Below the pieces are notes generated by a model. It was not told where the DNA came from and did not search any database. It worked only from the letters and a program-made list of their open reading frames with translations. DNA of 64,000 nt, taken from Bacilli bacterium. GTDB lineage: Bacteria > Bacillota_I > Bacilli_A > RF39 > UBA660. Location of the stretch: contig JAFQTN010000002.1 of NCBI GenBank assembly GCA_017409025.1, positions 112,185-176,184 of the forward strand, given 5' to 3'. This document shows, piece after piece, positions 17,246 to 23,470 of this stretch (the stretch's first letter is position 1; each line of letters starts with the position of its first letter). Both the position numbers and the translations under genes were made by a program.

Positions 17246-20200
17246 CTATTGTTTTAATCCTAACGCAGCATTTAATTCCGGATTAGCTTTGCTCGAACCA
17301 TTTATTATTTCCAAATATACAGTTTCCTCAGAAACATTTGGACCTAATTTATTCAATTTGTTCCTAAAACACCACTCTAAATCAGGCCCTATAGCAGATG
17401 CCAATCCTTTTTCATAACTTATCCCAACCATTTGGCTAACAATCTCTATAGCTCTATTATAAATCATTTCGTCAGTAGGGTCAACTACACCAGAATATTC
17501 AAAAGATTCTATAGCACTTCTATAAATATCATCCTTTTTAGATAAAACATTTTCTTTTGAATCTTTACCTAAAGTGCTACCATAGGTAACAACATTGCCA
17601 ATAGCAACCTTTATACGACCTGCTAATTCCATATTTGCTCTCGCTCTTACTTTATTCTGATTTCTTGTATTAACAGCATATTCGGCCATTTCCTTTACAG
17701 AATACCCTTCTGCTTTCATTTTTTTAACTTCTTCTTGAATTGCATTATCCTCTAATAAATATTTGATCCTTATTTCCCTATTCTTCATAACCTCTGCTTC
17801 ATTAGAAAAATCAAAACCAGCAAAGCGCTCATTTCCAACAATTCTATAACCAAAAACCGTATTAGAATCTTCTTGTAAAAAAGCGACAGCCGCCGGTTCA
17901 ATCTCAGATAGCCTCAAACCTTTTCCAGAAGTACCTATCCCAGTATACTCGGCATAATCTAAACCATATTTAGAATGCGTATAATTCAAATTTTTAACTC
18001 CTGTTTTGGCAGTTTCTTTTTTTTGATTTGCATCAATTAAATTTGTTGTTTCTGCTAATTTGCTTACTTCTCTAATCTCTACATCTATTCCTGCGTAATC
18101 TGCATATTGTTGATATATAGATTTTACCGTATCTGACGTTGACGTATCTAATTCTATTACTATCTTTATTGTTTTTCCATCTACGGCTTTATTTAAAAGT
18201 AAATCCCCTTTTGAAATTAATTCGCCAGCTCTTTCATCAATTGCAAATATTGTACAAAATGGTACTGCTTCCGAATTTTTTATAGATACTACAACCTCTA
18301 CATCATTCTCAGACGCAGCTTCAATCCGATATGTTTGATTATTCTCACCAAGTACAAATTGTGGTGATTTATTGGTTTTATCTCCATCTATTTCATACGT
18401 TACATTTGCAGCTTCTGCTTCTGCCAATTTCAAATAAGATAATTTCTGTGGATCATCTTTTTTCAATCCAAAACGTTCCAACATAATTGCTAATTGTTCA
18501 TTAATAGGTAATGTCGTATCTATATTATTTCTTGACATAAGTTCATTAAAACTTAATTGAACGTTATAATTTGTTGTTTTAAATGTTATTGGTTTTCCAT
18601 ATTGATTTGTTCCGGCGTTATCATTATTTGTTAATGCATCTCCAATTCTCACTATTAAAGATTCATATCCTGCTTTTGTTATCCAATCTAAATTAAAATC
18701 ATATACTTCGATTTTTCCAACTGCTTTGCCGGTGGCATTATCACCCACTTTATTAATTACATTTTGATCCTTTGATCCCTCACCAGATGGATTTGGAACA
18801 GCAAAATCTTCCAAATGTGTATCTTTCGATTTTATTACGCCATTTTTCAACAATACATCTACTATATCAAAATCACTATCTTCGGTTGCTGCTGACAACG
18901 CATGAACCGCAAAAGACCATCCCGCTTCATTGCTAGATAAAGATTTTAAACCAGAATTACTTTTCGAGTGAGCAAAAGTTAATATTGCTGCTTCGGCAAT
19001 CTCCAAATCACTATATCCAGCCTTTCTTAATATTTCAGATTCTAAGATTATATCTACACCTGAATTAAACGAATGTGATTTTCTATAAATTCCTCCGTCG
19101 GCTTTTGCATCTTCCTTAATCCATGGCTCTAATTTACCCTGTTCATTTACTACAAAATATATTTCTTTGCCTCCAGACATTCCTGTATCATGCATAACTG
19201 CAGATAACATTATTGTTTTTAAAGATAAATTATCAATACCTACATCTTTAAATGCAGCATAAGAATTTATACTTTGTGTTAACACATCCATCGCATGTAC
19301 AATGCCATGTGTTCTATATGTGTTAAAGAATCCCTTACCACTCTCAAGTTTATCCTTTAATCCATCCCTTGCTTCTTCATAGTATTTTGACATTGAATCT
19401 AAAACTTCTATGCATTCCTTGACATCAGATAATTGAATTTCTGCATTCTTGGAAGCATCTAACAAATTAATATATAATGAAGTAGCGGCCTCTTCATCCA
19501 AAACCCAAGAACTTAAATTATCTCCAACTAAATTATTAAATAATTGCTGTACTTGTCCTTTTGTTATAGTTCCATTTTTAATACCCACTTCAATCACTGC
19601 CGGATCTGTTATTTCTGATAATTTTTCAGTTTCGTTAACAAATGAATTTTCTAATACTTCAACACCAACTTCATTAAATATCGGTTCAGACACAATGCCA
19701 TTCTCATCTACAGCACTAAAACTATCAACATATTCTGGATTAATATTATATGTATTAGTATCTTGATTAAAGTATACAATACTCTCTATAGAAACACCTT
19801 TAGGAACCCTTATAATTAATGTCCCATCAATAGGATTCATACCTTGAGAAATACCAAAAGAACTTTTTAAAACATTAACAAGATCGTATAATCCATCTAC
19901 TTTATTAACAGTATTTATCAACTTTACTTGTGAAATATCAGTAGGTGTAGAACCATATCCACTAGTAGTAGTCCCAAGACATCTAACACCTTCAGACATA
20001 ATAGAACTAACATCAGAAGAATTAACTGTTTTAACGTAAATATCATATTCTCCATCTTCAAATAAACTTGAATAATAATTGCCCGCTTCTGGACTAATAT
20101 ATCCTTTATTATTTGTATTTGATAAAATTGTATCAATCTGCTGTTGTGTAAAAAAACCACTTTTTAATTTTGATTCATAAAAACTCCCCATGTCACTAAT

Positions 20201-23200: not shown

Positions 23201-23470
23201 AGCGAATGTAGGGTCAGAATCATATAATTGTTCCTTTAATTGAACCATATTAGCATTTAAAGAATCAACATTTTCAATAATTTTTTTTATTTCTAATTTA
23301 CATTTTTTAGATTTACTTGAAGAATCTGAACCTAACAAATGAGTTTTTTTATGAATTGAAGTTATTGAAGAATTTAGTTTATCCAAATAATTAATAGCCT
23401 TTTTTATATTTTTTTCGGCATTATAAAAATTATCGGTTTCAAACAAAAAATCTACTTCATTATTTTCCAT
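17246..23470 (-). CDS. 2074-aa putative T7SS substrate/effector: LXG-like helical N-terminus, glycine-zipper hydrophobic region, internal HD-superfamily phosphohydrolase motifs, unassigned C-terminal region
   Basis: Start at M13 of the ORF behind aggtga. Helix-turn(L45-L46-G47)-helix N-terminus. GPAVGAKVGAVLGTDVGLKV / APIIAGGGMAW segments. H..HD..H..D motifs: THGIVHAMD, AVMHDTGM (HD codons 19187..19192), TFAHSKSN, VRIGDALTN. Confidence 0.6.
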   Translation of the reverse strand: MENNEVDFLFETDNFYNAEKNIKKAINYLDKLNSSITSIHKKTHLLGSDSSSKSKKCKLEIKKIIENVDSLNANMVQLKEQLYDSDPTFAQVYDMMEIYGDDVDFSPVSSYEEPVFTTQYDYLWANLSEEEKSENMIKNCDAAIEKLEEENARLWNEWTRYFNGSYVAENYGLTYSFGDVLDTPEYLKEGNGDISNIWAFFDANEDYYVKLINDKYKEKYGEIYFNEDYTLDDFKATRDNFGWDIIFDSYIADYTKKYNRYMADKVHLDAENDERMKRINQIQQELASIRASKYSIQQYQKELPYLRIAETQEYKTFADAYRKQNSNFLFMGDVPEEMVIMQAYLLDTQGQDAVDAYNVAVEDKWNQIYAAREAKKYLDMVTGPDGKIDQNLLTGALTAGEGLWAGIVNFGEGLGNLFNEEGMISVNSYTQMYILEALTNTSGSYANELAANIYKTKGEEEYNTFVEKVGLKTGKLDLEYAKTALTDEEYKLLEEKYNFDKNNVLGHTYQISTSIGNMAPTMITSLVLSKVLGPAVGAKVGAVLGTDVGLKVTSAVAFAAPIIAGGGMAWSSAGNAYNQALVDGYDRTASYQYGICSGLSEATMTLLLSNIPGLNIIGDTGLFGEGAEEFIQTYVDAGFRYAILGESVDFESLSEEAKMSFWYGVITAGVMDGGVSLASNVYTELKTGGVNVSSYQDLVNYALISNNKSITVDTKVNGDSKQVVISIESSALESDTSLASKLHSLYPEAVLLRNNPNGTVSIIDPDFNYTINDVSKIFTDTKAIVRNPDGTISPISENIGLEGEVSTTEYINRKQEMNIQQATNYELYQKQVSLIRAELAKVDYGKASTSKYMVDYLASNLKKFFYTNTNSVSGLNQDIEQNGLYHFTTAADQIIKSGYIKSSDMMSSYGNPKTFFFNGVPSVGAFATNLDNVPLKTVAVKVTPTSESLESSKFKVRYMDDKAITYDGKFQLDGSKVEKCYFGLTLENGKLVYKQISEAAYNSYESTALGTVMSEYVNNADNVAAIKADYLSNLAKENKLSISDEGRLLKDGESLSVGLQFFGRKNTTVSDSEFNSKNHTIDPVHGLQVDISDMGSFYESKLKSGFFTQQQIDTILSNTNNKGYISPEAGNYYSSLFEDGEYDIYVKTVNSSDVSSIMSEGVRCLGTTTSGYGSTPTDISQVKLINTVNKVDGLYDLVNVLKSSFGISQGMNPIDGTLIIRVPKGVSIESIVYFNQDTNTYNINPEYVDSFSAVDENGIVSEPIFNEVGVEVLENSFVNETEKLSEITDPAVIEVGIKNGTITKGQVQQLFNNLVGDNLSSWVLDEEAATSLYINLLDASKNAEIQLSDVKECIEVLDSMSKYYEEARDGLKDKLESGKGFFNTYRTHGIVHAMDVLTQSINSYAAFKDVGIDNLSLKTIMLSAVMHDTGMSGGKEIYFVVNEQGKLEPWIKEDAKADGGIYRKSHSFNSGVDIILESEILRKAGYSDLEIAEAAILTFAHSKSNSGLKSLSSNEAGWSFAVHALSAATEDSDFDIVDVLLKNGVIKSKDTHLEDFAVPNPSGEGSKDQNVINKVGDNATGKAVGKIEVYDFNLDWITKAGYESLIVRIGDALTNNDNAGTNQYGKPITFKTTNYNVQLSFNELMSRNNIDTTLPINEQLAIMLERFGLKKDDPQKLSYLKLAEAEAANVTYEIDGDKTNKSPQFVLGENNQTYRIEAASENDVEVVVSIKNSEAVPFCTIFAIDERAGELISKGDLLLNKAVDGKTIKIVIELDTSTSDTVKSIYQQYADYAGIDVEIREVSKLAETTNLIDANQKKETAKTGVKNLNYTHSKYGLDYAEYTGIGTSGKGLRLSEIEPAAVAFLQEDSNTVFGYRIVGNERFAGFDFSNEAEVMKNREIRIKYLLEDNAIQEEVKKMKAEGYSVKEMAEYAVNTRNQNKVRARANMELAGRIKVAIGNVVTYGSTLGKDSKENVLSKKDDIYRSAIESFEYSGVVDPTDEMIYNRAIEIVSQMVGISYEKGLASAIGPDLEWCFRNKLNKLGPNVSEETVYLEIINGSSKANPELNAALGLKQ

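Follow-up and report, generated by a model that had tools for sequence, protein, structure and literature searches.

We analyzed a 64,000-nucleotide stretch of DNA from a Bacilli bacterium (GenBank assembly GCA_017409025.1, contig JAFQTN010000002.1, positions 112,185 to 176,184), hereafter the window, and focused on its longest open reading frame (ORF), a gene on the minus strand at 17246..23470 that encodes a giant protein of 2074 aa. The gene starts at an ATG at 23470, with a Shine-Dalgarno sequence (GAGGTG) 7 nt 5' of it, and stops at 17246-17248; the mechanical ORF extends further, to a TTG at 23506, and would give 2086 aa. Because this 6.2-kb frame runs without interruption through local DNA of about 30% GC, and because relatives are found elsewhere, the ORF is not a chance product. 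A preliminary description, made from the sequence alone, had presented it as the longest ORF of the window, lying directly downstream of WXG-type genes of a type VII secretion system (T7SS); its coordinates and context were borne out. The parts of the giant protein are as follows.

23165..23470, minus strand: predicted helix-turn-helix hairpin, aa 1-102, a putative T7SS targeting element common to one relative (P0002) only.
22454..23164, minus strand: helical/coiled-coil spacer, aa 103-339, with a helix of about 70 residues at aa 240-310; its last ~80 aa are weakly conserved in the family.
21161..22453, minus strand: region B, aa 340-770, family-defining and all-helical, with motifs NxYxQMYI and GNMAPTM.
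21725..21961, minus strand: two long hydrophobic small-residue helices within region B, aa 504-582, with four GxxxG repeats at aa 533-549; a candidate membrane-inserting hairpin.
20321..20953, minus strand: module C', aa 840-1050, a Tox-ART-HYD1-like ADP-ribosyltransferase by PF15633 matches in relatives, conserved residues and fold.
19646..20227, minus strand: module D, aa 1082-1275, a compact alpha/beta domain, absent from P0002 and also found as stand-alone proteins of ~200 aa.
18041..19603, minus strand: module E, aa 1290-1810, a putative divergent HD-type phosphohydrolase module with an HD core and a conserved beta-rich C-terminal subdomain.
17249..18007, minus strand: module F, aa 1822-2074, a helical C-terminal domain with conserved GxGxxGxG and RNxxK motifs.

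Neither the full-length protein nor any of six segments of it yielded a usable match when scanned directly against Pfam and NCBIfam. Word-index homolog searches were also poor for this family (3, 6 and 1 hits), and with the whole protein they returned two relatives only, P0002 and P0003; an exhaustive search opened the family up. P0002 matches aa 1-1081 at 79% identity and the HD module (aa 1290-1803) at 52%; it has no counterpart of aa 1082-1289, and its C-terminus is unrelated. P0003 has only aa 340-761 in common with the giant protein (37% identity) and carries an ADPrib_exo_Tox domain and a weak HD-CE match; in its locus, EssC lies upstream and a downstream gene has a weak DUF4176 match. 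We used the alignment of aa 340-761 as a pattern scan over 185,579 species genomes and obtained 16 loci. Of these, 14 are labeled as Bacilli metagenome-assembled genomes (MAGs), several of them named as Hadza (human) or rabbit samples; the other two are labeled Mycoplasmatota and Muribaculaceae. The family members in these genome loci are 630-2850 aa long. An exhaustive HMMER search with aa 875-2074 against 1.8 billion representatives yielded 305 hits, which sort into four non-overlapping modules at aa ~875-1040 (C'), ~1068-1275 (D), ~1290-1810 (E) and ~1822-2074 (F). These modules recur in other large proteins in new combinations, often at the C-terminus, and C', D and F are found on their own in small proteins as well; region B is present too in at least 47 of the listed module-bearing proteins. 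Among 32 relatives scanned with Pfam, three have ADPrib_exo_Tox, and a dockerin, a SHOCT domain and an EF-hand pair were each found in one. These results show that the giant protein belongs to a large, unnamed, Pfam-dark family marked by the helical hydrophobic stretch at aa 340-770, and that C-terminal parts are exchanged between its members like cassettes. The proposal that its multi-module make-up has no described counterpart among LXG toxins was upheld.

The variation among relatives includes tandem HD modules and dockerin or EF-hand members, as in P0010, P0020 (L024:6001-10761) and P0135. P0010 (L019:652-10989) is 3445 aa long and has two E modules in tandem; the genome of one dockerin/EF-hand-bearing member has a GerA spore-germination gene.

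We then considered the neighborhood of the gene. The giant gene belongs to a T7SS island in which an 83-aa ORF, EssC, a double-WXG100 gene, an 87-aa ORF and the giant gene are followed by ORFs of 144, 266 (metallo-beta-lactamase (MBL) fold) and 130 aa. The genes on its upstream side and the two flanks are listed here, with EssC assigned as the ATPase of a type VIIb secretion system (T7SSb).

29659-30027: rplL (ribosomal protein L7/L12), island flank.
29300..29551, minus strand: 83-aa ORF, kept beside EssC in 12 islands; possibly EsaB/YukD-like.
24704..29284, minus strand: EssC T7SSb ATPase, 1526 aa, TIGR03928 at 1001 bits (cut-off 778), with FtsK_SpoIIIE and FHA domains.
24010..24627, minus strand: fused double-WXG100 protein, 205 aa, with two WXG100 halves; an 83% identical homolog lies upstream of P0002.
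23680..23943, minus strand: 87-aa helical ORF just upstream of the giant gene, with no Pfam match; a 46% identical homolog lies upstream of P0002.
11785-15396: rpoB, the flank on the other side.

An EssC protein (41-45% identical) is encoded within 10 kb of a family member in 11 of the 16 loci, and the gene order is conserved: EssC, a homolog of the 83-aa protein, two to four small proteins, one or two family members, and further small genes. In one locus (L014), two of the small genes that directly precede the family member encode WXG100 proteins, and a gene with a strong DUF4176 match lies two genes downstream. Thus, the family is linked to EssC and lies behind small WXG100/helical genes, and the T7SS connection drawn in the preliminary description held across loci. 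In one rabbit MAG, at least five family members are spread over four loci, of which a single locus adjoins EssC; the copies away from EssC look like orphan cassettes, by analogy with other polymorphic toxin systems. Across islands, the only conserved partners of EssC are the ~83-aa protein and the small WXG100/helical proteins. The 87-aa ORF is a candidate targeting partner or chaperone of the giant protein. The size and position of the 83-aa ORF and its C-terminal NGxxLxLI resemble the ubiquitin-like EsaB/YukD, an assignment we offer as a guess; Pfam and PDB sequence searches with this family gave no support for YukD/EsaB. Neither in the window island nor in any related island (L001-L018) was EssA, EssB or EsaA visible. 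EssB-like candidates upstream of EssC in related loci were rejected, one being a lipid phosphatase/diacylglycerol kinase and the other having no match. EssC islands of this kind may represent a minimal T7SS in reduced-genome Bacilli/Mycoplasmatota.

The island (15612-29551) sits between rplL and rpoB, among the most conserved gene strings of bacteria. In L020/L021, a related island occupies the same site, directly after rplL, and in L014/L018 the island instead lies between homologs of the window genes at 44337-45125 and 42666-43454; from the shared site and the different one, the island appears to be mobile with preferred insertion sites. WXG100 proteins are usually ~100 aa long and dimerise; here the domain occurs as a fused pair in one polypeptide of ~205-217 aa (24010-24627 in the window; L014:1702-2355).

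Its multi-enzyme architecture might make the giant protein a phage or conjugative-element protein of the 'polyvalent' or tape-measure-like kind that lies near EssC by coincidence, and tape-measure or minor tail proteins were in fact the top BFVD matches (E 0.009-0.1). However, those matches have TM-scores of at most 0.1 and root-mean-square deviations of about 30 A or more, the values of generic long helices, and LPD and MuF profiles matched neither the giant protein nor the 32 relatives. The island, flanked by rplL and rpoB, contains no phage or conjugation genes, and the linkage to EssC recurs across loci. We therefore regard this origin as very improbable.

The product of the giant ORF is probably a polymorphic toxin with several cargoes (a 'polytoxin') that leaves the cell through the minimal T7SSb-like system next to it; in this reading, its export, its insertion into membranes, every enzymatic activity and the immunity are inferred. 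Among known systems, those nearest to it are multi-domain polytoxins (see below) and the LXG polymorphic toxins of T7SSb, such as TelA/B/C, YxiD and TspA (Whitney 2017, PMC5555719; Klein 2024, PMC10801868). Like the LXG toxins, the giant protein is encoded beside essC and behind small helical WXG100-like partner genes, has a predicted N-terminal helical hairpin, and carries interchangeable toxin domains at its C-terminal end, with small cognate genes behind them; DUF4176 genes occur nearby in both cases. Unlike them, it carries four cargo modules and not a single one, and where they have a short linker or pre-toxin region it has a conserved helical hydrophobic region of ~430 aa. Its island lacks EssA, EssB and EsaA, and neither the giant protein nor 24 relatives have a detectable LXG domain. 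The T7SS polymorphic toxin is thus familiar in kind, and what is new is the family, the carrier region, the candidate HD-immunity pair and the minimal system. A literature search combining T7SS with RF39 returned incidental mentions only.

The N-terminus had been described as an LXG-like hairpin. In the AlphaFold2 model, a helix at aa 4-41, a turn containing L45-L46-G47 and helices at aa 52-85 and 87-102 are followed by more long helices, and the hairpin is plausible at a predicted local distance difference test score (pLDDT) of 64-80. The resemblance to LXG did not carry over to the family level: LXG and WXG100 profiles gave no match at E<=10 to aa 1-340 or to the N-terminal halves of 24 relatives, and none at E<=0.001 in 32 full-length relatives. 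A Foldseek search of the N-terminal model against the PDB returned generic helical proteins and no Esx or LXG structure, and a PDB sequence search with the N-terminus gave coiled-coil noise only. By profile, then, the giant protein is not a member of the LXG family. Its N-terminus may plausibly act like a WXG-type hairpin, as the model suggests; the first 130 aa match P0002 only. In mycobacterial T7SS substrates, a YxxxD/E motif closes the second N-terminal helix. YDMME occupies this position in the giant protein (aa 93-97; 23180-23194), and YDMLD in P0002; with 14 YxxxD/E motifs in the protein, the occurrence may be due to chance and carries little weight as a secretion motif.

Region B has no relative in Pfam, in the PDB or by Foldseek. 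In the AlphaFold2 model, its long hydrophobic helices lie at aa 504-543, 553-582 and 650-687. The preliminary description had read residues ~380-700 as a glycine-zipper-rich membrane segment. The glycine-rich strings it quoted are present (aa 533-552, 560-570 and 664-677), but in a Kyte-Doolittle scan only aa 518-574 are strongly hydrophobic, and the perfect run of four GxxxG repeats is private to the giant protein, recurring in part in its closest relative. What the family conserves is GNMxPS, a small-residue hydrophobic stretch and an EGxEExxQE-type motif, and not a glycine zipper. Crude insertion energies of the region B helices are similar to those of EssC's own transmembrane segments, and it is a plausible inference from the model that region B inserts into a membrane. 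The pore domain of colicins and the T domain of diphtheria toxin are helical membrane-insertion or translocation domains. Like these, region B combines a hydrophobic helical hairpin with amphipathic helices and lies between a targeting part and catalytic cargo; it shows no sequence or structural match to either, and the likeness is architectural only.

These properties also bear on the proposal that the giant protein is a structural membrane component, in which region B replaces the missing EsaA, EssB and EssA and the C-terminal domains are displayed as accessories. Region B is the most conserved element other than EssC and occurs in every island, its two or three long hydrophobic helices have simple insertion energies close to those of EssC's own transmembrane segments, and homologs of EssA, EssB and EsaA were not seen; in L009, a conserved 320-aa gene a short way upstream of EssC encodes a housekeeping lipid phosphatase/diacylglycerol kinase. 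Machine subunits, however, are normally single-copy and constant in architecture, whereas the family varies from one to two copies per island, with orphans far from EssC in the same MAG, and over the length range given above, with N-termini that are not conserved. Its C-termini are swapped like toxin cassettes, with recognisable toxin domains, a bona fide ADP-ribosyltransferase domain among them, and co-varying downstream genes. A substitute for EsaA or EssB thus seems quite unlikely.

Next we examined the cargo modules. The preliminary description had found no recognisable motif in the remainder of the protein, and the direct scans agreed; family-wise scans, in contrast, identified aa ~840-1050 (module C') as Tox-ART-HYD1-like. 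PF15633 (Tox-ART-HYD1) matched 16 of 41 C' relatives, with E values down to 7.4e-5, and also 7 of the 24 members of another set. Across 41 sequences, H886 (in GLYHFT), K913, F915-917, R957, D961 and Y993 are invariant or nearly so, and the published Tox-ART-HYD1 signature of H, [RK], [FY] and [DE] (PMC3482391) is conserved in the module. The motifs GLYHFT, SYGxxKxFFF and ExxxLVYK are PARP- or diphtheria-toxin-like, and the AlphaFold2 model is of the alpha/beta type (pLDDT ~90), in line with the predicted alpha+beta fold of the family. Tox-ART-HYD1 is known from T7SS-associated polymorphic toxins, in which it is C-terminal; module C' differs in being internal, right after region B. Module D folds confidently (pLDDT >90) and has near-invariant residues (C1164, K1147, K1202 and N1212), several invariant Lys, Asn and Gly among the conserved positions; it has no relative in Pfam, the PDB or BFVD.

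Module E corresponds to the region in which an HD phosphohydrolase signature had been noted. All four quoted strings are present, at aa 1387-1395, 1424-1431, 1498-1505 and 1607-1615, and their H, D and neighboring residues are kept across relatives that are 38-65% identical. The conserved residues are H1388, H1392, H1427-D1428, H1466, H1501 and D1611. Among ~24 relatives of the module, HD-CE (PF24391) matched ten (best E 0.001) and HD (PF01966) four (best E 0.076), all weakly and below threshold, and by hhalign the HxxxH...HD.G stretch aligns with the HD-like C-terminus of P0003. In the model, beta-hairpins are inserted into a helical core (pLDDT >90), to which a beta-rich subdomain of ~120 aa is appended. 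In a Foldseek search of the PDB, the second-best match was 3i7a, a putative HD phosphohydrolase (E 0.33, prob 0.30). Module E is probably an HD-type phosphohydrolase, an assignment with support of moderate strength. It resembles HD-CE/HD proteins in the order HxxxH ... HD.G ... H ... H ... D within a helical core and in the recurrent weak profile matches; it differs from them in being very divergent, in its large beta-hairpin insertions and beta-rich subdomain, and in being read as toxin cargo with a dedicated partner of ~130 aa. In the literature, 'HD-CE' led to no paper bearing on the Pfam family.

Module F was modeled as helical at low confidence, with misplaced alignment rows and so effectively no alignment, and no relatives of known function were found for it. 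PDB sequence searches with the whole protein and with the module profiles gave nothing for B, C', D, E or F, and Foldseek found no match at E<=0.001 for either AlphaFold2 model against the PDB or for the C-terminal model against BFVD. Hsp70-NBD and NAD-synthetase fragments, which recurred among the Foldseek matches, were rejected as insignificant.

Downstream of the giant gene lie the following three genes.

16798..17232, minus strand: 144-aa ORF, candidate immunity protein or partner for module F; a 51% identical homolog lies directly after P0026 (L020/L021).
16001..16801, minus strand: hydrolase of 266 aa with an MBL fold (Apyc1/RNase Z-like), belonging to the F cassette; a 49% identical homolog lies after P0026.
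15612..16004, minus strand: 130-aa ORF, candidate immunity protein for the HD module.

In each of the five other loci examined, a homolog of the 130-aa protein is encoded downstream of the HD-module gene, with identities between 25% and 68%: 68% for P0010 (L019), 42% for P0002 (L002, with one gene between), 26% for P0017 (L023) and 25% for P0020 (L024), the homolog at P0015 (L022) being cut off by the contig end. P0026 is a 1052-aa family member that ends in module F, and it is followed by the homologs of both the 144-aa and the MBL-fold genes. The MBL-fold gene scores 89 bits against the NCBIfam 'cyclic nucleotide-degrading phosphodiesterase', and its L020 homolog has a match to Pfam Anti-Pycsar_Apyc1. 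Because the MBL-fold and 144-aa genes always accompany module F, the activity of F may involve a (cyclic) nucleotide that this enzyme destroys. The downstream genes are likely immunity cassettes, given a co-variation that resembles that of toxin-immunity pairs.

The protein could alternatively be a T7SS effector aimed at the animal host, or be kept at the surface for adhesion or contact. The MAGs in which its family occurs are from the human and rabbit gut and have small AT-rich genomes, dockerin modules or ADPrib_exo_Tox domains of the C3/VIP2 type are present in some relatives, and two of the four cargo modules are without an immunity candidate. Set against this, small downstream genes co-vary tightly with the HD and F modules, a hallmark of producers that protect themselves from toxins whose targets are conserved in bacteria, and Tox-ART-HYD1 is tied to immunity proteins and intraspecific conflict (PMC3482391). 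Because immunity-like genes are present, we favor a host or surface role less, and judge it unlikely.

For the interbacterial polytoxin, the following course can be proposed. The N-terminal hairpin, the 87-aa protein and the double-WXG100 protein would form a helical bundle that EssC recognises and exports. Region B, with two long hydrophobic helices among amphipathic ones, may serve as a surface anchor, or may insert into the target membrane and carry the cargo across. Within the target, an H-Y-[D/E]-type ADP-ribosyltransferase, the alpha/beta domain D, an HD metal-dependent phosphohydrolase and the helical domain F would then act; the usual target of HD toxins is a nucleic acid or nucleotide. 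The producer would be protected from the HD module by the 130-aa protein and from the C-terminal domain by the 144-aa protein, perhaps together with the MBL-fold hydrolase. A more far-reaching version, which we put forward tentatively and hold to be somewhat doubtful, is that the family is a new non-LXG class of type VII substrates served by a minimal EssC and WXG100 system without EssA, EssB and EsaA in reduced-genome, possibly wall-less, gut Bacilli/Mycoplasmatota, and that region B translocates up to four enzymes into the target cell: the ADP-ribosyltransferase, the HD hydrolase, whose immunity family would also be new, and two domains with novel folds.

MARTX proteins are multi-effector toxins that invite comparison with this architecture. 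As in these, and in the multi-domain polymorphic toxins termed polytoxins (Zhang et al. 2012, PMC3482391), one giant protein, here presumably secreted, strings together a number of enzymatic toxin domains that are unrelated to one another, and modules are shuffled among relatives, as P0010 with its two HD modules illustrates. The giant protein differs in having no detected autoprocessing protease or RHS/repeat scaffold and in a route linked to T7SS instead of type I, type II or type VI secretion.

Several results weigh against the polytoxin reading. The secretion signal is assumed, since neither profile nor structure ties the N-terminus to LXG/WXG100, and, with EssA, EssB and EsaA not visible in any island, a working export function of this EssC system is likewise assumed. 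Membrane insertion is suggested by hydropathy and a moderate-confidence model. The Tox-ART-HYD1 scores of the C' relatives are sub-threshold or marginal, and the window copy itself has no Pfam match; the window copy of the HD module likewise has no Pfam match, and Foldseek did not confirm an HD fold (best E 0.33). Pfam revealed no releasing protease (CPD, HINT or caspase) and no RHS/repeat scaffold in the giant protein or in 32 relatives. No immunity candidate turned up for module C' or module D, with no search aimed at Imm-My6CBD, the known immunity protein in the case of Tox-ART-HYD1.

T7SSb toxins are understood almost entirely through the LXG proteins of cultured Bacillota, and their passage across the membrane of the target cell has yet to be explained. 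The present family is large, comes from uncultured gut bacteria, and has a different carrier, with a hydrophobic helical region exactly where a translocation device would be expected; if region B is a delivery module, toxin entry into Gram-positive or wall-less targets becomes directly testable. The locus is minimal, with apparently little beyond EssC, the 83-aa protein and WXG100 proteins. It offers two candidate toxin-immunity pairings open to testing, in which the 130-aa protein would counter the HD module, and the 144-aa protein and the Apyc1-like hydrolase the C-terminal domain, as well as two confidently folded or conserved domains without known relatives.

Elsewhere in the window, two minus-strand ORFs directly downstream of rpoC (5015-6442 and 6514-8061; 475 and 515 aa) have no Pfam match and no homolog in related loci. 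A promoter and terminator scan was uninformative in this AT-rich DNA (112 observed versus 97 expected). Nearly all long ORFs of the window (1-64000) are on the minus strand, and GC skew is strongly negative except at ~38-40 kb; the strand bias and the skew are consistent with a single replichore of a low-GC (23-34%) genome.

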